Of a stretch of 64,000 nt of DNA, positions 34,975-41,185 are shown piece by piece. This DNA is from Phycisphaerae bacterium (lineage in GTDB: Bacteria > Planctomycetota > Phycisphaerae > UBA1845 > Fen-1342). The stretch lies in contig CAXXWX010000016.1 in NCBI GenBank assembly GCA_963675745.2, positions 160,001-224,000 on the forward strand, given 5' to 3'. Position numbers and translations under genes: made by a program. The notes under the pieces were generated by a model. That model did not search any database. It worked only from the letters and a program-made list of their open reading frames with translations, and was not told the DNA's origin. Positions within the stretch are counted from its first letter, which is position 1; each line of letters starts with the position of its first letter.

Positions 34975-35883
34975 ATCGGGTAGCCGGGGAGGTTGCCCTG
35001 CCCCGGCTCCCACACCACCGTACGTACGGTTCCGTATACGGCGGTTCACGAGCAACCCGCGAGTCGCCGATGCTCGTCCATCAGGCTGATCAGCCCGAGT
35101 CCGCGCAGTTCGGAGGTCGGGACGGCGTGGTTCATGTGACGGGCCCCGGCGTTCCACCAGGGACCACGCCCATTCCACGCCGACTGCCGGGCCCGCTCAT
35201 GATCCAGGCCCCGCCGGCACAGCTCCCTGAACTGGGTCCGGTGTCGCTTCCACTGTCGCCACAGGATGCAGCGCAGTTTTCGTCGTAACCACTGGTCCAG
35301 TTGCTCGAAGCTCGCCTTGACCTCCGCGAGCTTGTAGTACGCCACCCAGCCCCGCAGTACGCGGGTCAGGGATTCGGCGACGCGGGCGAGGTTGCAACCC
35401 CGTCCGCGACGCAGCATGGGGCGGAGCTTGGCCTTCAATCGGTGCACCGATTGCGGGGCCACCTTCAGCTTCGGCTGCCGGTGCATGGTCACGGTGTAGC
35501 CCAGGAACTTGCGGGTCCAGGGCCGATCCACCGCGCTCTTCTCACGGTTCACGTGGAGACGCAGTCGCTCCGTCACGAACCGCTCCACCGAATCGAGCAC
35601 CCGTTCGCCCGCACGCCTGGACCGCACGTAGATGTTGCAGTCGTCAGCATAGCGAACGAATCGATGGCCGCGCCGTTCCAGCTCCTTGTCCAGCTCATCG
35701 AGCAGGACGTTGCTCAACAGCGGCGATAGCGGCCCACCCTGCGGTGTGCCCTCGGCCCGGGGCGAGACCAGCCCGCCCTCCATCATCCCCGCCTGTAGAT
35801 AGCGGCGGAGGAGGAGTAACACCTTCTTGTCCTTGACCCGGCGCGCCACGCGTGACATGAGCACGTCGTGGTTCACCCGGTCG
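34975..35883 (-). mobile_element. 3' part of a class C-like group II intron (RT C-terminal half, domains V-VI)
   Basis: Minus-strand DV GAACCGCCGTATACGGAACCGTACGTACGGTGGTGT, DVI ending ...CTACCCGAT at 34975. Confidence 0.9.
35046..35883 (-). pseudogene. ltrA: Group II intron RT/maturase, C-terminal half
   Basis: FDRVNHD, GTPQGGPLSPLLSN, RYADD, KFLGY, maturase X domain; cut at the FFD motif. Confidence 0.9.
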
Positions 35884-35956
35884 AAGGAACACACGACACA
35901 CTACCCACATCCGCGACCTTCCCGCCACCGTCACGGTCCTCCGTAAACGTCATCCG

Positions 35957-36415
35957 ATGGAAGGTAAGGCGCTGCGCATCCATGGACATCTTCATCGAAA
36001 CGGTTGCTACCTTCTGGTGTTGGAGTTGCCGGACGGCACACGATCGCTGATCCCGGCCTGCTGGACCGATCTGGACAGAGTGTCGTCACCAACTCCTGAC
36101 GCCGAGACCCCGTCGAGCACATCACAATTGCTCGGATTGGTTCGTGACTTGCTCCAGGCCCGCAAGGTCGTGGATGCTCTGCTGCGAAGGCTGGAGGCTC
36201 AATCGCCATCAGCGAATGGCCTTTCGCAGGAGGAGCGCCGCGATGCAATACCAACTGGAGTTCTGGCCCACGACGGAGGTGGTTCTCCACAAGCACGAGC
36301 CATGGGAGAACTTGGGCATCAACGAGCAAGCCGAGCGAATCGCCCTGTTGGCGCGCTTGATCGCAAAGGCCGTATGTCCGGAGCGGGACGACGCGACGCA
36401 GGAGAGCAGCCATGA
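35957..36415 (+). CDS. DUF5372-like accessory protein; frame stays open 5' to the element end
   Basis: VTVLRKRHP..G..LELPDGTRSLIPACWTDL pattern (family call from recall); TGA overlaps the recombinase ATG (ATGA). Confidence 0.65.
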   Translation: MEGKALRIHGHLHRNGCYLLVLELPDGTRSLIPACWTDLDRVSSPTPDAETPSSTSQLLGLVRDLLQARKVVDALLRRLEAQSPSANGLSQEERRDAIPTGVLAHDGGGSPQARAMGELGHQRASRANRPVGALDRKGRMSGAGRRDAGEQP

Positions 36416-36422
36416 GCAGTAA
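36243..36422 (+). CDS. Small (59 aa) accessory protein overlapping the recombinase start
   Basis: Strong SD AGGAGGAG before ATG 36243; MQYQLEFW..W..ALLARLI; stop lies inside the recombinase 5' end. Confidence 0.55.
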   Translation: MQYQLEFWPTTEVVLHKHEPWENLGINEQAERIALLARLIAKAVCPERDDATQESSHEQ

Positions 36423-38634
36423 CGAGAAGATCAAACCGACTCACTTGGATCGCAACGCCTACGTGTACGTGCGTCAGTCCACGGCCACGCAAGTTCAACA
36501 CAACCGCGAGTCTACCCGCCGACAGTACAAGTTGGTGGATCGCGCCATCTCTTTGGGATGGCCGAAGGAGCGAGTCAAAGTCATTGACGAGGACCTGGCC
36601 CGCTCGGGCGCCGGCAACGTGGAACGCGACGGGTTCACCCGAATGACGGCCGAGGCGGCCCTGGGGCAGGTCGGGCTGATCCTCTCGATCGAAGTCTCAC
36701 GCGTCGCGCGCAACAATGCCGACTGGTATCGGCTGCTGGATCTGTGCGGCGTGACCGACACGCTGATCGGCGACGAAGACGGTCTGTACCACGCCGGCCT
36801 GTTCAACGATCGACTGCTCCTTGGACTGAAGGGCACGATGGCGGAAGCCGAACTGCACGTCATTCGGGCCCGGCTGGATGGTGGTATCCGCAACAAGGCT
36901 GCACGCGGCGAGTTGCGTCGCGGGCTTCCGGTCGGCTTTGTCTGGGGCGAAGACGACGGCGAAGTGCTTTTTCATCCCGACCAAGCCGTCACGGGCGCGA
37001 TCCGGGCCGTCTTTGACAAGTTTGCTGAAGTCGGGTCGGCCCGACAGGTCTGGCTCTGGTTCCGAGGTGAAGGGCTCCATTTTCCGCTACAGGCGAACGG
37101 TCTGCGCGAGATCCGCTGGGTGACGCCGACCTACACCGCCATTCACAACATCCTGACCAACCCGGTCTATGCAGGCGCTTACACGTATGGTAAGACTCGC
37201 CAGGAACGATATGTGGACAAAAGCGGTCGGCTCAGGAAGCGGCTGCGCCGCTTGCCGCAATCCGAGTGGGCCGTGCTGATCCAGGATCACCACGAAGGCT
37301 TCGTTGACTGGAACACCTATGAGATGAACCAGGCCCGCCTCAAGCAGAACACCCGCCCGCGTCCTCATCAGGCTGGCGGCGCGGTCCGTGAAGGCACGGC
37401 ACTGCTGCAAGGCATCGCGACCTGCGCCGCCTGTGGACGCCGCCTGAATGTTTACTACCAGGGCCGCAACGCCACGCCCGGCTACTACTGTCCCAGCAGC
37501 AACATCGCCAACGGCAGGGGACGCTGGTGCATGCGCGTCGGCGGAGCGCGGATCGACAAGGCGGTCAGCGCTGCCTTCCTGGAAGCGGTCGCTCCGGCGG
37601 GCATGCGGGCCGCGCTGCAAGCCGAAGAGCTGATCGACGCCGAATACGACAGTGCAGTAGCGCAATGGCGTCTGCAGGTCGAGCAAGCCCATTACCAAGC
37701 CGAGCGGGCTGAGCGTCGTTACCGATCAGTGGAGCCGGAGAACCGCCTGGTGGCTCGAACCCTGGAAGCCGAGTGGAACAAGCGGCTCGACGAACTGACC
37801 ACCGCCGAGGCCGAACTGGCGCGCCGAGAGCATCAACGTCCCGAACGTCTGACTGACCGGCAACGTGAGCGCATTCATCGACTTGGCGCAGACCTGAATC
37901 GCGTATGGGAAGCGTCCACAACGACGGACCGCGATCGCAAGGAGCTACTGCGATCCATGCTCGAGGAAGTCAACATCGCCGTGAACCGCACTGATGCCCA
38001 GGCGCACGTAACGCTCCGTTGGCGTGGCGGGCTGTTCACCGAGATCGATGTGCCGCTCTGGCATCCCAAGGAGACGGTCGTCCGCACTGATGAAGATACC
38101 GTGGATCTCCTGCGGCGACTGGCCGAGCACCATCCCGACGCGATGATCGCCGGTATCCTCAACCGCCAAGGGCGGAAGACCGTCCGCGGCCTGCGCTTCA
38201 GCGCCAACCGTGTCAGCAGCCTGCGGCGAAGTTGGAAGATCCCACGCTACCAGCCGCCAGATACTCCTCCCGAGGGCGAGTTGGTTACCGTGGAGAGAGC
38301 GGCGAAGATCCTCGGTACCGCACCTTCGACCGTACATCGCTGGATCAACGATGGGTTCATCGCCGGCCAGCAGGTGACTCCCGGCGCGCCCTGGCAAATT
38401 CGCGTTGCCGACGACTGGAAGGAACGCTTTGTCGAAGAGCCGCCGCCGGGCTATGTGGCGATGCAGGTCGCAACCCGAATCCTCGGCGTCTCGCGCCAGA
38501 CCGTCTTGCAACGTGTAAAGCGCGGCGAGCTGCAGGCGGTGCATGTGTGCCGCGGCAGGCGCAAAGGCCTTCGTATCAGAGTGTTAGATAATCAGCCGGG
38601 TCTCTTCGACGCGAATCAAAAAGCAGGGGTGTAG
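36412..38634 (+). CDS. Large serine recombinase (resolvase, recombinase, Zn ribbon, coiled coil, C-terminal HTHs)
   Basis: YVRQST catalytic Ser, SRVARN, NPVYAG, CAAC..YYC..WC, two terminal HTH-like segments. Confidence 0.93.
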   Translation: MSSNEKIKPTHLDRNAYVYVRQSTATQVQHNRESTRRQYKLVDRAISLGWPKERVKVIDEDLARSGAGNVERDGFTRMTAEAALGQVGLILSIEVSRVARNNADWYRLLDLCGVTDTLIGDEDGLYHAGLFNDRLLLGLKGTMAEAELHVIRARLDGGIRNKAARGELRRGLPVGFVWGEDDGEVLFHPDQAVTGAIRAVFDKFAEVGSARQVWLWFRGEGLHFPLQANGLREIRWVTPTYTAIHNILTNPVYAGAYTYGKTRQERYVDKSGRLRKRLRRLPQSEWAVLIQDHHEGFVDWNTYEMNQARLKQNTRPRPHQAGGAVREGTALLQGIATCAACGRRLNVYYQGRNATPGYYCPSSNIANGRGRWCMRVGGARIDKAVSAAFLEAVAPAGMRAALQAEELIDAEYDSAVAQWRLQVEQAHYQAERAERRYRSVEPENRLVARTLEAEWNKRLDELTTAEAELARREHQRPERLTDRQRERIHRLGADLNRVWEASTTTDRDRKELLRSMLEEVNIAVNRTDAQAHVTLRWRGGLFTEIDVPLWHPKETVVRTDEDTVDLLRRLAEHHPDAMIAGILNRQGRKTVRGLRFSANRVSSLRRSWKIPRYQPPDTPPEGELVTVERAAKILGTAPSTVHRWINDGFIAGQQVTPGAPWQIRVADDWKERFVEEPPPGYVAMQVATRILGVSRQTVLQRVKRGELQAVHVCRGRRKGLRIRVLDNQPGLFDANQKAGV

Positions 38635-38950
38635 TATGATGATGTCTCCAAGAACCCACGGATGTCGACGTCGAGCACCCAGTTCACCTTCCTCGTCAGC
38701 AGTCCGGTGTACAGGGCGTCCAGCGCGTTGTGCTGGCTGCGCCCCGGCCGGAAGCCGTACGAGAAGCCGAGGAAGTCAGTTTCGTAGATGGCGTTCAACA
38801 CCTCGACCGTGGCCCGGTTGTAAACTGGACGAGCTTGTCTTCCAGCACGGGCACACCGAGCGGCCTTTGCCGCCCGTCGGCTTTGGCGATGTACACCCTA
38901 CGAACCGGCTTGGCTCGGTACGCTCCGCGTTTGAGCCGCGCGGAAAGGTC

Positions 38951-39580
38951 GCGGCGCTGCCACCGATTCAAAACCCGCCACGGAGGCGCCTCCCGGGGCG
39001 ACCACTGCGGAGATCACATCCCTGGAGGCGTCGGAGGTTCTCCTCCAGCGCCTCGCCGTAGGCTTTCCACGTCTGCCCGTCTACACCCGGCGCGGCATCC
39101 CGCTTGAGGCGGAAGTACGCCTCCCGCAGCGTGTCCAGGTTGTAAACGTGGTGCGCTTTCCGGCATTTCGGCGGCGTGCCCAAGACGCTGGTGTCGACAA
39201 CCTCAAGGCTGCGGTCATCAAGGCCGACTGGTTCGACCCGGATCTCAAGGAGCGCGGTGAACCGCATCTTCCTATCACTTCTTGCCGCATGGCGTATCCG
39301 CTCCAACGCACTGGGCAGGTCACTGGAGCGGCGGTAGGTGCATCCCCTTGGCTGTGTCCGCGGTTTCCCGCTCACACGGTACGCATCTTCGACCGGCGTG
39401 CCCGTGTAGGGTTCGCCATATCCGTCTCCTTCGCCCGGCACGGTGTCCGGGACCTGTTTTGCTGGCGCGGATTCCCTTTGGCCAAGCCCAATTCGAGTTC
39501 ATGGATGACCATCCGATCATCCGGAGTCTGGGCGACTACGAACAGTTCGTCCAAACCGCTTTTCGGGAGACAAAGCTATG
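38951..39580 (+). mobile_element. IS21 istA-like fragments interleaved with intron sequence
   Basis: AFRHFGGVPKTLV.DNLKAAVIKADWFDPDL (about 39154-39246), HTVRIFD, EFMDDHPIIRSLGDY. Confidence 0.65.
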
Positions 39581-39717: not shown

Positions 39718-40528
39718 ATGAATGAAGCCATGCAGACAGCTTTGAAGAAGTTGCGGCTTTCCGGGATGGCGCAGTCGTTGGAGGTGCGTTTGCAGGAAGC
39801 GTCCAAGCCACGGACTCAACCACGCGGAGTTCTTGGAGCTGATTCTCCAGGATGAGTTGGCCATCCGCGCCGAGCGGCAGATGAACCGGCGGGTCAAGGC
39901 CGCCGCCTTCCGCGAACTCAAGCCGCTCGATCAATTCGACTTCGCGTTCAATCCTTCGATCAAGAAGAAACAAGTGTACGACCTGGCCACCTGCCGGTTC
40001 ATCCGCGAAGCGCGGGACTGCCTCCTGCTCGGTCCTCCGGGCACGGGCAAGAGCTTTTTGGTCCAAGCCCTGGGCTATCAGGCCATCAAGGCGGGATTCA
40101 CGGTGCTGTATCGCTCGATCTTCGATCTGGTGCGCGACTTCCTGCACGACGATGCCTTCGCCGGCATCGACCGAGTGCTAACCAGATACCTCAAACCGGA
40201 CTTAGTCATCATCGACGATTTTGGGATGAAGCAACTGCCGAAGCGCTCGGGGGAGTATCTGTTTGAGATCATCATGCGGCGCTACGAGACCCGCTCTACG
40301 ATCATGACCTCGAACCGGCCGCTGGAGGATTGGGGCAAGGTCATCGGCGACGTCCCGGCCGCTACTGCCATCCTGGATCGCTTCCTGCACCATGCCGAGG
40401 TCATCACCATCACGGGCAAGAGCTACGGCTGCGCAAACCAAGCCCGTGATAGCAAGAGCCCCAACGACCCGACCGACAACATGACGAGAAGAAGGGCAAG
40501 GTTGCGGCTCCCTTGCCGGACCCAGTGA
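39718..40528 (+). pseudogene. istB: IS21-family helper ATPase, frameshifted near 39805 and near the 3' end
   Basis: LKKLRLSGM N-terminus in another frame; GPPGTGKS, VIIDDFG, TSNRP..WG, AILDRFLHH. Confidence 0.85.
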
Positions 40529-41185
40529 GGACGGTATAGAAACATCAACAAAAGTGCTGGGTTTGAGGGCGCTCGCCTGGACTTCTCAGGCGCCTCCCGT
40601 ACTACGAGCGGCGGTAGGTGCATCCCCTTGGCTGTGTCCGACGGTTTCCCTCTGCGTGCCCGTGTAGGGTTCGCCATATCCGTCTCCATCGCCCGGCACG
40701 GTGTCCGGTCCTGTTTTGCTGGCGCGGATTCCCTTTGGCCAAGCCCCTTCCCTCCGCCCCCTCCGCACGGGGACTTCGCAGGTCTACGGGCCTGTCCGAC
40801 TTCTCGCGTCCGTTCATCATCGGCGTGTGGACTTCCCCACGGCCCGCAGCACCATCAGTTGCGGGCGGACACGAGATCTCCCGGTTCTCGCGCGAGGTGT
40901 TTCCGCACATGCACGGGGTCTCAGACCGCGCGGGGTCCCACCGCATCTCGCGATATCGATGCGTCGGATGTAGCCTTCCGCCTACCTCCACGGCGTCGGC
41001 ACCCCAAAGGGAGTTACTTTCGCGGCTCAGTACCCGGCCTGCACGTACCCCTGTCAACGCTTCGCCCCTGCCCTCGCGGGCAACGACGCATGACTCGGGG
41101 CCGCTGTGGGCCGCTAACCCTTCAACGTATGACTCCTTCATTCACTACACCTCGCCGGTTTATCCCGGCGCACGGAGGAACCAAC

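Follow-up and report, generated by a model that had tools for sequence, protein, structure and literature searches.

A DUF5372-like gene of a minimal serine-recombinase element is probably divided by the attachment site and given its start codon by the joined element ends

We describe a 2.77-kb element at positions 35884-38651 of the window, i.e., the whole stretch of 64,000 nucleotides from a Phycisphaerae bacterium that was analysed, which contains three genes, namely, ORF1, the small ORF2, and a gene for a 740-aa large serine recombinase (LSR). The best explanation of its layout as a whole, which we consider likely, is that attP lies inside the 5' end of ORF1 and that the start of this gene is supplied by the joined ends of the element. 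The original prediction, that an accessory gene here receives its start codon only when the element circularises, is confirmed in its observation, and a split of the gene is well supported; on the evidence of sequence and comparison, full-length ORF1 could not be made from the integrated element. The features concerned are the following.

34975..35046, minus strand: domain V/VI, forming the 3' end of the group II intron in which the target reverse-transcriptase (RT) gene lies (Rfam RF00029)
35046..35883, minus strand: left flank, C-terminal part of the RT gene with the maturase domain, cut at the FF/D motif
35884..35885, plus strand: attL core dinucleotide AA (crossover site), common to both ends and also found in relatives
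35885..36415, plus strand: ORF1 body, 176 codons plus TGA, DUF5372-like, without a start of its own before 35957
35886..35910, plus strand: attP P' arm (left end), which also codes for R-N-T-R-H-T-T-H
35957..35959, plus strand: Met25, the first in-frame ATG in the integrated state, located after beta-strand 1 of the predicted domain
36243..36422, plus strand: ORF2, 59 aa, behind GGAGGAG, in another frame over the ORF1 tail and ending 11 nt into the recombinase gene
36412..38634, plus strand: large serine recombinase, 740 aa, with two C-terminal HTH_17 domains (Pfam)
38611..38649, plus strand: attP P arm (right end), with the SD-like AGGGG (38625-29) and the conserved start ATG (38636-38)
38650..38651, plus strand: attR core dinucleotide AA
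38652..39441, minus strand: right flank, from a second RT gene, which is frameshifted; its N-terminal part, with ..VLDVDIRGF at the end (RVT_1, weak)

The element is inserted at an AA core within a group II intron RT gene, and its boundaries are fixed by two independent results, namely, the interruption of the minus-strand RT gene, which is broken between ..DIRGF and FDRVNH.., and the existence of uninterrupted intron copies. The left-flank intron has three further copies in the same genome, which are 100% identical to the left flank and all read through the insertion site without interruption (empty sites). The core shared by the two ends is AA (35884-85 and 38650-51), with AAG common to both, and the contigs of several relatives begin or end exactly at this core. 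Pfam matches in the left flank are RVT_1 (3.5e-21) and GIIM (3.1e-20), the intron 3' end matches RF00029 with 44.6 bits (gathering score 40), and identity with the intact intron copy L011 begins exactly at this 3' end. The right flank is single-copy in the genome and has no DNA-level relation to L011; the two flanks of the window copy derive from different RT genes.

In 48 dereplicated elements the att arms form imperfect inverted repeats to about 25 nt around AA, and short att sites with imperfect inverted arms and a non-palindromic central dinucleotide are those of the LSR type. The recombinase itself matches Resolvase (PF00239, 5e-15, residues 16-167), Recombinase (PF07508, 3.5e-19) and HTH_17 (6.7e-12) in Pfam; the match to Zn_ribbon_recom (PF13408), at 24.1 bits, is just below the cut-off of 25.3, and Cys338, Cys341, Cys360 and Cys373 are invariant. 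Ser23 in the motif YVRQS, the candidate nucleophilic serine, is invariant in 43 relatives. By its catalytic domain, its Recombinase/zinc beta-ribbon region and its att sites, the enzyme is an LSR of the phage-integrase/TnpX type, and the element is a minimal site-specific mobile element that inserts antisense at the FF/D motif of group II intron RT genes.

At the left end, the ORF1 frame is closed by the TGA at 35858-60 and open from 35861, and ATG, GTG and TTG are all absent from it until the ATG at 35957; positions 35885-35956 read RNTRHTTHIRDLPATVTVLRKRHP. No SD-like motif was seen directly upstream of Met25 on reading the sequence. At the right end, the recombinase stop TAG (38632-34) is followed by a single T (38635) and then by ATG ATG ATG (38636-44), behind the AGGGG at 38625-29. 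Both the start-less frame and this ATG trio, in frame across attP, had been predicted, and all coordinates given for them hold. Of the three ATGs, the conserved one is the first (38636), which lies 14 nt before the right-end core and comes into frame with ORF1 after end-joining. In the joined form, codon 5 of the junction ORF precedes the attP core and the ORF1 body follows it, which places the core within the gene, and joining the ends in silico supplies an expression signal in the manner of the circle-junction switches of the Tn4451, IS911 and ICEclc type. At its other end, ORF1 stops with a TGA (36413-15) that overlaps the recombinase ATG (36412-14) as ATGA, in agreement with the closed loop of coupled genes that had been proposed.

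Comparison with related elements argues that this arrangement is not peculiar to the window copy. We collected 69 ORF1-recombinase pairs from 116 fetched loci plus the window's own copy, of which 63 had both ends on the contig and were kept, while the other 6 were dropped. Joining the ends of these homologous elements in silico, a check suggested with the original prediction, yielded an in-frame ATG or GTG in 63/63 elements (46 ATG and 17 GTG; 35 and 13 after dereplication to 48 elements), in each case 14 nt before the core. The joined frame is open through the ORF1 domain in 61 of them, the exceptions, L026 (second copy) and L053, being frameshifted. The same end geometry in all 63 related elements is more than the chance coincidence considered at the outset, with the proviso that the arm geometry is fixed and the 63 are not 63 independent trials. 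An SD-like 4-mer stands upstream of the right-end start in 62/63 elements. Among 56 unique strings from the start to +40, stops are found in none in frame 0, in 51 in frame 1, and in 7 in frame 2. A search with the recombinase in 61 genomes (the window's own and 60 relatives) found two distant recombinases only; L016, whose gene layout differs, was left out.

The same layout recurs in a second clade, that of the canonical DUF5372 elements, which have TT as their core and differ in the P' arm and in N-terminal length. For canonical DUF5372 members in the phylum, a recombinase match was found within the fetched locus at 8 of 9 places, and the members sit at the left end of recombinase elements. 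The split layout is present in both of the two canonical-clade elements examined with both ends. In the first, G411, the ends are fixed exactly by two identical 3,379-bp copies, and the joined ends give an ATG, four codons, and then an ORF running into FRVTHPFHP; the joined ends of the second, G432, have the same arrangement with GTG as the start. An in-frame TTG occurs at the element's fourth codon in the G411 clade. Dozens of diverged elements, drawn from many phyla, retain the layout, as does a second clade whose att sites are different.

ORF1 is homologous to DUF5372 at the profile level. Its single-sequence match to Pfam DUF5372 (PF17342) has 13.7 bits (E 0.067; 15 bits in the genome scan), which is under the family cut-off of 25, whereas an hhalign comparison of 82 family sequences with 8 canonical DUF5372 sequences gave a probability of 95.6% and an E-value of 1.2e-8 over residues 13-91. 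In addition, 28 of the best 30 Atlas clusters nearest to ORF1 are DUF5372 (features score 0.95), and the homologue P0010 carries a precomputed DUF5372 assignment. The AlphaFold model of ORF1, with a pLDDT of 88-92 over residues 11-66, predicts an SH3-like barrel with strand 1 at residues 15-18 and a disordered tail (residues 110-176). The suggested check of whether DUF5372-like conservation begins upstream of the Met at 35957 bore the prediction out, since the hhalign alignment starts at residue 13 and strand 1 also precedes this Met. A Foldseek search with the model found no match at E 0.001 or better; the best VIA-align match, with Z 6.2 and rmsd 2.0 over 54 residues, is an Spt5 KOW domain, one of numerous SH3, Tudor and KOW barrels matched. 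A function based on the fold was rejected, as this is a generic small barrel that gives no functional lead. DUF5372 has no recorded function, and our full-text literature search found no paper naming it.

Could ORF1 be translated across the junction mainly for an effect in cis, namely, to deliver ribosomes to the recombinase start, with a protein that has no role in directionality? An ATGA overlap joins the ORF1 stop to the recombinase start in 56 of 77 relatives; 61 of 74 unique sequences have no stop in the ORF1 frame where it runs over ORF2; and the tail that covers this stretch is predicted to be disordered. Such a purely cis-acting role would explain all of these. An ungapped codon-phase analysis of the overlap between the ORF1 tail and ORF2 found entropy saturated in all phases, and ORF2 matched no Pfam family and no named Atlas cluster. 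However, the N-terminal 100 residues of ORF1 contain 13 invariant columns in 82 sequences from many phyla, a strong conservation at the protein level that coupling alone would not require. In addition, a predicted complex of the recombinase with ORF1 residues 1-110 scored 0.60 against 0.00 for the best of three controls, with at least 79% contact agreement between runs and a partner pLDDT of at least 66. In the calibration of this score, 116 of 157 solved complexes passed the mark, as did 2 of 215 mismatched pairs, and scores of 0.60 or lower belonged to only 18 of those 157 solved complexes, plus both passing mismatches, so the prediction lends weak support to ORF1 binding to the recombinase. 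On this balance we regard the purely cis-acting role as unlikely, although it is the least unlikely of the three alternatives that we weighed.

It is somewhat less probable still that the right-end ATG or GTG and its SD-like motif are kept only as a recombinase-binding site, with ORF1 made from internal starts such as Met25 and the extension upstream of it conserved as DNA. In the RT-targeting clade, the TG of the start codon and the SD-like GGAG/GTG sit at positions mirrored in the P' arm, within arms that are inverted repeats to about 25 nt; the conservation of the start codon alone is therefore confounded by a constraint from recombinase binding. Codons 1-8 are conserved at all three positions, and codons 5-8, which lie in the att arm, at nearly all positions, which indicates a constraint on the P' arm at the DNA level. 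Likewise, most of the variation in codons 2-4 of the junction peptide falls on second positions, arguing that there is no protein-type selection in this part. In 97 of 101 unique sequences the distance from the P' arm to the domain varies by whole codons, to which we gave little weight, as most of this is slippage of a CAC repeat and comes in multiples of three anyway. The evidence against a mere binding site comes from codons 13-24, which lie outside the symmetric arm and upstream of Met25. Across 80 unique left ends, conservation is 100% for Pro13 (third-position entropy 1.67), 96% for Val16 (1.81), 97% for Arg20 (1.79), 100% for His23, and 93% for Pro24 (1.95); that is, these codons have invariant amino acids, near-saturated third positions and synonymous-only variation, and such protein-type conservation implies that the region upstream of Met25 is translated. 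The first beta-strand of the predicted barrel lies within these codons, and the DUF5372 homology likewise begins upstream of Met25.

The integrated left ends bear on the same point. Where the frame is closed upstream, 70 of 81 unique left ends have no ATG, GTG or TTG between the upstream stop and Pro13. The first in-frame start of these 70 falls at codons 25-27 in 23, as an internal start like Met25 would have it, but beyond codon 28 in 33, 8 of which have none until beyond codon 62. The remaining 14 have it at codon 24 or earlier, a GTG at Val16 being seen in about ten elements on element-by-element listing; copies with such an early internal start could make a nearly complete domain while integrated. 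Two further observations go against a site kept for binding alone: the canonical clade keeps its start although the TG has no mirror in the P' arm, and in the RT-targeting clade the P-arm triplet is always ATG or GTG and never CTG, whereas its mirror in the P' arm reads CTG in 9 of 63 elements.

Least probable of all, and quite improbable in our view, is that ORF1 is expressed while integrated by read-in from the flank, a non-canonical start or re-initiation, so that the split is only apparent: the frame does stay open for a median of 13 flank codons, a possible flank start exists in 10 of 81 integrated copies (ATG in 3 of them), and the database annotation of the homologue P0006 begins ahead of the conserved region, at a start codon that we read as flank-encoded, but the flanks vary from copy to copy and consist of antisense sequence from unrelated RT genes, the 70 left ends above have no start before codon 13, and no conserved near-cognate codon with a properly spaced SD was seen at the left end.

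The reading that we favour, namely, a gene whose start is supplied by the joined ends, would operate as follows. In the integrated element, the left end has the ORF1 body, first domain strand included, with neither a ribosome-binding site nor a start codon for it; an SD-like motif and an ATG or GTG are found in the att arm of the right end, the start 14 nt ahead of the AA core. Once the recombinase has brought the ends together, whether by excision of a circle or at any other head-to-tail junction, the start with its next four codons, followed by the core and the P' arm (coding for R-x-x-R-H-T-T-H), would be fused in frame to ORF1, and only with joined ends would the full-length protein be translatable. 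In the circle, with the ATGA of ORF1 on the recombinase start and the recombinase stop abutting the ORF1 start, translation would probably be coupled from gene to gene all the way round, and more recombinase would be made at the time when the element has to re-integrate. From the recombinase stop to the ORF1 start that follows it, the distance is 1 nt in 23 of 63 elements and 12-14 nt in 15, while 6 have a GTGA overlap of the two. As for the role of the protein, our best guess, which is tentative, is that ORF1 is a recombinase partner of the circle state that biases the reaction toward integration, e.g. by countering an excision factor such as ORF2.

We looked for the joined form in the available sequences. 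A DNA search of the window's own genome for joined ends hit one place only, the integrated copy, and the contigs of four public runs over 35300-39300 contained no right-end-to-left-end joint, at a depth of about 7 and in assembled contigs, which drop rare forms. A search of all stored loci for the right arm followed by the left arm returned one match, which was rejected as a chance AGTGTG in the flank of L035. A scan for one promoter type, sigma-70-like, found none on the plus strand at either end of the window copy.

Our full-text literature search returned no description of this layout, of a DUF5372 function, or of serine-recombinase elements targeting RT genes; by analogy, the closest systems appear to be junction promoters and attP-within-gene switches. 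In Tn4451/Tn4453 of Clostridium, whose LSR is TnpX, the circle junction is reported to form the promoter of the recombinase gene (Lyras & Rood 2000, as cited in PMC13023037). These are likewise small LSR elements in which end-joining creates an expression signal lacking in the integrated form; in contrast to their junction promoter, an SD and a start appear here to be joined to the body of an accessory ORF, the coding sequence itself being split. For Pcir of ICEclc and P3'end of ICEKp1 it is reported that a signal at one end drives the gene at the other end only after excision (PMC13023037). This state-dependent expression after excision resembles the present case, but it concerns tyrosine-integrase ICEs under transcriptional control, with the regulated integrase gene intact in both states. 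In the integration-dependent immunity of mycobacteriophage BPs, as described in PMC4557955, attP lies inside the repressor gene, and integration removes the 3' end together with a degradation tag. Both systems would have attP inside a coding gene, with different products coded by the integrated and free forms and the att site acting as a state sensor; however, BPs has the 3' end cut, an active integrated form and a tyrosine enzyme, whereas here the 5' end (RBS and start) would be cut, only the free form would code for the protein, and the enzyme is a serine recombinase. In archaeal integrases of the SSV1 type, the element's own tyrosine integrase gene spans attP and is partitioned by integration. 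The two cases are alike in having an element gene across attP that is split when integrated, but the gene split in SSV1 is the tyrosine integrase, whereas here it would be an accessory gene beside an intact serine recombinase.

Mobile elements need to sense whether they are integrated or free, and the known solutions include circle-junction promoters and an attP that clips the 3' end of a regulator. In the element described here, the att site would separate the RBS and start from the coding body, with the same bases serving as recombinase-binding arm and translation signal. It is possible, though we hold this only tentatively, that the DUF5372-recombinase mini-elements of many phyla contain an obligate state sensor, whose circle-only product, made in a coupled ring, directs the LSR to re-integrate, the RT-targeting clade being in addition a dedicated parasite of group II introns. 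The strict targeting of a single motif in group II intron RT genes is of separate interest, as one mobile element here resides inside another. If ORF1 is a circle-only cofactor, this would provide a function for DUF5372, and would represent a new and very compact form of direction control of serine integrases, which are widely used tools of genome engineering.

In the window, the ORF1 (DUF5372-like) frame follows a TGA at 35858-35860, is open from 35861 and has ATG 35957 as its first ATG, GTG or TTG, so the coordinates of the start-less stretch from 35885 to 35956 in the original prediction are correct. Translation of 35885-36415 gives RNTRHTTHIRDLPATVTVLRKRHP followed by MEG.., and the terminal TGA overlaps the ATG of the recombinase as ATGA at 36412-36415. 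At the right end of the element (35884-38651), AGGGG (38625-38629) is followed by the recombinase TAG (38632-38634), one T, ATG ATG ATG (38636-38644), TCT and CC-AA. Once the ends are joined head to tail, 38636 is in frame with both 35885 and 35957, confirming the predicted continuity between ORF1 and an ATG that lies after the recombinase stop and is preceded by AGGGG. The 740-aa recombinase has the Pfam domains Resolvase, Recombinase, a borderline zinc ribbon and two HTH_17, and ORF1 matches Pfam DUF5372 below threshold (13.7 bits vs a cut-off of 25; profile positions 6-50 on residues 23-67). The other features are as follows.

36243-36422: ORF2, 59 aa, with a conserved QLEFW...LARLIAKA and no known family
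Minus strand, 35046-35884 and 38652-39441: reverse transcriptase (RT) gene cut by the element, its right part ending in ..VLDVDIRGF and its left part resuming at FDRVNHD..; the left part carries RVT_1 and a group II maturase domain
34975-35046: group II domain V/VI (Rfam match)

AAG is common to both ends, and comparison of relatives narrowed the crossover to AA (35884-35885 and 38650-38651); the boundaries are thus fixed, which justifies joining the ends as the original prediction did. Three further places in this genome, in C26 (twice) and C7, match the left flank (35000-35884) at 100% identity. They are intact intron copies in which the sequence continues straight past the insertion point, and are thus empty target sites. 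The match between the window and L011, an intact copy of the intron, is confined to 34975-35886. On the right, the element abuts another RT, frameshifted and present once in the genome, so that its left and right flanks derive from different RT genes. Contigs from the public sequencing run X13 contain the element as one unitig (35857-38655) with a depth of 7.3, the four-copy left flank with a depth of about 29-30, and also the right-flank RT in uninterrupted form. These hybrid flanks could be explained by recombination or deletion between two element copies, or by an assembly join through the element; either cause leaves the family-level conclusion untouched. Run X14 contains a variant that differs at 6 bases and has another left flank, suggesting recent mobility. 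The same element (window 35300-39300) is present in runs X13-X16, labelled as two organisms in two studies. To its right lie an ORF (39833-40528) that we take to resemble a fragment of an IS21-type helper ATPase and, on the minus strand at 40916-41136, a complete match to group II intron D1-D4 RNA (RF02005, 191.6 bits); this region is a pile of mobile-element remnants.

Protein search yielded 11 ORF1 homologues, three of which reach upstream of the Met and retain RNTRHTTH..P..V.I.R..HP, and pattern scans gathered relatives at 36 genome loci and 80 metagenome loci. The order ORF1-ORF2-recombinase is uniform across loci, element length is almost invariant (about 2,700-2,800 bp), and full-length recombinase matches are mostly 60-93% identical (local tblastn). 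Record titles of the relatives name Pseudomonadota, Planctomycetota, Verrucomicrobiota, Acidobacteriota, Gemmatimonadota, Binatia, Methylomirabilales and others. Where the left flank is at least 150 nt long, left ends adjoin the C-terminal half of an opposite-strand RT gene in 58 of 69, and right ends adjoin the N-terminal half in 37 of 46; the cut point is always at the motif ..D(I/V)xxFF|DxIxH.., and several contigs begin or end precisely at the core. The family is thus target-specific: its members insert at FF|D in RT genes of the group II intron type, in antisense orientation, so that one mobile element lives within a gene of another, in the ORF-bearing domain of the intron. Copies also occur nested or next to one another: L029, L075 and L076 have recombinase fragments followed by a second ORF1-ORF2-recombinase set, L026 has two elements about 1 kb apart, and L074 has a second right-end motif downstream.

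We joined the ends in silico for the 63 of 69 ORF1-recombinase pairs in the fetched loci (window copy included) that have both ends on the contig; the six dropped pairs (the first copy of L026, L074, L093, L094, L101 and L122) had a right-end motif score <14 or a left end off the contig. A start codon lies exactly 14 nt before the core in 63/63 (46 ATG, 17 GTG; 35 and 13 after dereplication at 93%, n=48), in frame with ORF1 as the original prediction would have it, and the joined frame is open through the conserved domain in 61/63, the exceptions (the second copy of L026, and L053) having internal frameshifts. An SD-like 4-mer occurs 5-16 nt upstream of this start in 62/63. Relative to this start, the recombinase stop falls 1 nt upstream in 23 of the 63 and 12-14 nt upstream in 15, and in 6 the two overlap as GTGA. 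In 14/63 (L020, L021, L022, L069 and others) the recombinase frame reaches the ORF1 start position still open and extends 11-353 nt, mostly across the core into the flank, so that the recombinase C-terminus may differ between the integrated and joined states of those elements. Many relatives, the window copy not among them, carry a 12-bp palindrome, CTTTCATGAAAG, over the recombinase TGA about 27-38 nt before the core; it could serve as a further site of protein binding.

Each end mirrors the other as an imperfect inverted repeat out to about 25 nt, which is what the two arms of a serine-integrase attP should look like. Since the positions mirrored in the left arm include the start codon's TG and some of the SD-like motif, recombinase binding may account for the conservation of both, and because arm geometry is fixed the 63 in-frame cases do not count as independent trials. 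Between the start and CC-AA, moreover, the three codons vary chiefly at the second position, a pattern unlike that of coding sequence. However, the mirrored left-arm triplet is CTG in 9/63, whereas the right arm always has ATG or GTG, and 56 unique joined strings have frame-0 stops in 0/56 versus frame-2 stops in 7/56; this asymmetry and the absence of frame-0 stops reach beyond the arm-symmetry argument.

A second clade bears on the same point. The DUF5372 Pfam model scored above its cut-off in 8 of 401 same-phylum genomes, at 9 places, 8 of which have a related recombinase match within the fetched locus. One genome (G411) has two 100% identical 3,379-bp copies at different sites, which makes the ends exact; its core is TT, and its left arm bears no relationship to the corresponding arm of the RT-targeting clade. 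At its right end an ATG lies 14 nt before the core, and the joined reading M-K-R-T-P-W-K-K-L-S.. continues in frame into FRVTHPFHP; another genome (G432) has the same layout with a GTG start. The TG of the start codon has no mirror in the left arm of the G411-type clade, so the arm-symmetry caveat falls away there. This clade has one in-frame TTG, at the element's fourth codon, a possible internal start.

In the integrated state, 70 of 81 unique left ends (frame closed by a stop within the contig) have no ATG, GTG or TTG between the upstream stop and Pro13; the flank supplies a start in 10/81 (three ATG) and a TTG lies inside in 1/81. Flanking sequence varies between copies, being the antisense strand of unrelated RT genes. 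Of the 70 left ends without a start before Pro13, 14 have their first in-frame start at codon <=24, 23 at codons 25-27, 25 at codons 28-48 and 8 beyond codon 62. We measured codon-position conservation on the most frequent length class of left ends (80 unique sequences). Nearly all positions of codons 5-8 (H-T-T-H, in the att arm) are conserved, indicating constraint on the DNA itself. Beyond the symmetric arm, codons 13-24 follow the pattern of the domain proper, with amino acids invariant or nearly so and third positions near-free: Pro13 100% (third-position entropy 1.67), Val16 96% (1.81), Arg20 97% (1.79), His23 100% and Pro24 93% (1.95). This codon-level pattern is evidence, independent of the end-joining test, that the region upstream of Met25 (ATG 35957) is translated. 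An 82-member family profile aligned with 8 canonical DUF5372 proteins (95.6% probability, E 1.2e-8, residues 13-91) sets VTVLRKRHP over FRVTHPFHP, and homology therefore begins at residue 13, upstream of the Met as originally proposed. The AlphaFold model of ORF1 (82 sequences; pLDDT 64 overall, 88-92 for residues 11-66) shows four strands (15-18, 29-38, 41-47 and 53-57), then a helix (86-106) and, from 110, a disordered tail; since strand 15-18 precedes Met25, a protein initiated there would be without the first barrel strand.

The ORF1 frame is open over ORF2 down to the ATGA overlap with the recombinase start in 56/77 relatives. With this overlap and the recombinase stop beside the junction start, the predicted loop arrangement is borne out in sequence, and the circle would hold three genes coupled head to tail. 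ORF2 lies wholly in the ORF1 tail in another frame; over the last 186 nt before the recombinase in 74 unique sequences, stops occur in 13/74 for the ORF1 frame, 14/74 for the ORF2 frame and 72/74 for the recombinase frame. Since most relatives preserve both frames as open, ORF1 and ORF2 may be a true overlapping gene pair.

A junction promoter is reportedly present in Tn4451/TnpX, and the SSV1 integrase gene has attP inside it. Published accounts describe junction promoters for ICEclc and ICEKp1 (PMC13023037) and an attP inside the BPs repressor gene (PMC4557955). Our full-text search of the literature returned no description of an SD and start codon parted from their own ORF by attP, of a DUF5372 function, or of serine-recombinase elements targeting RT genes. 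The ORF1 fold is a generic SH3/KOW/Tudor-like barrel. A predicted complex of the recombinase with ORF1 residues 1-110 scored 0.60 (best of 3 controls 0.00), a range (<=0.60) holding only 18 of the 157 solved complexes used for calibration and both passing mismatches, the mark being reached by 116/157 solved complexes and 2/215 mismatches; runs share at least 79% of their contacts, at a partner pLDDT of at least 66, lending weak support to ORF1-recombinase binding. In our working model, ORF1 would be a partner of the recombinase in the circle state, favouring re-integration, and its translation may also feed ribosomes to the recombinase gene.
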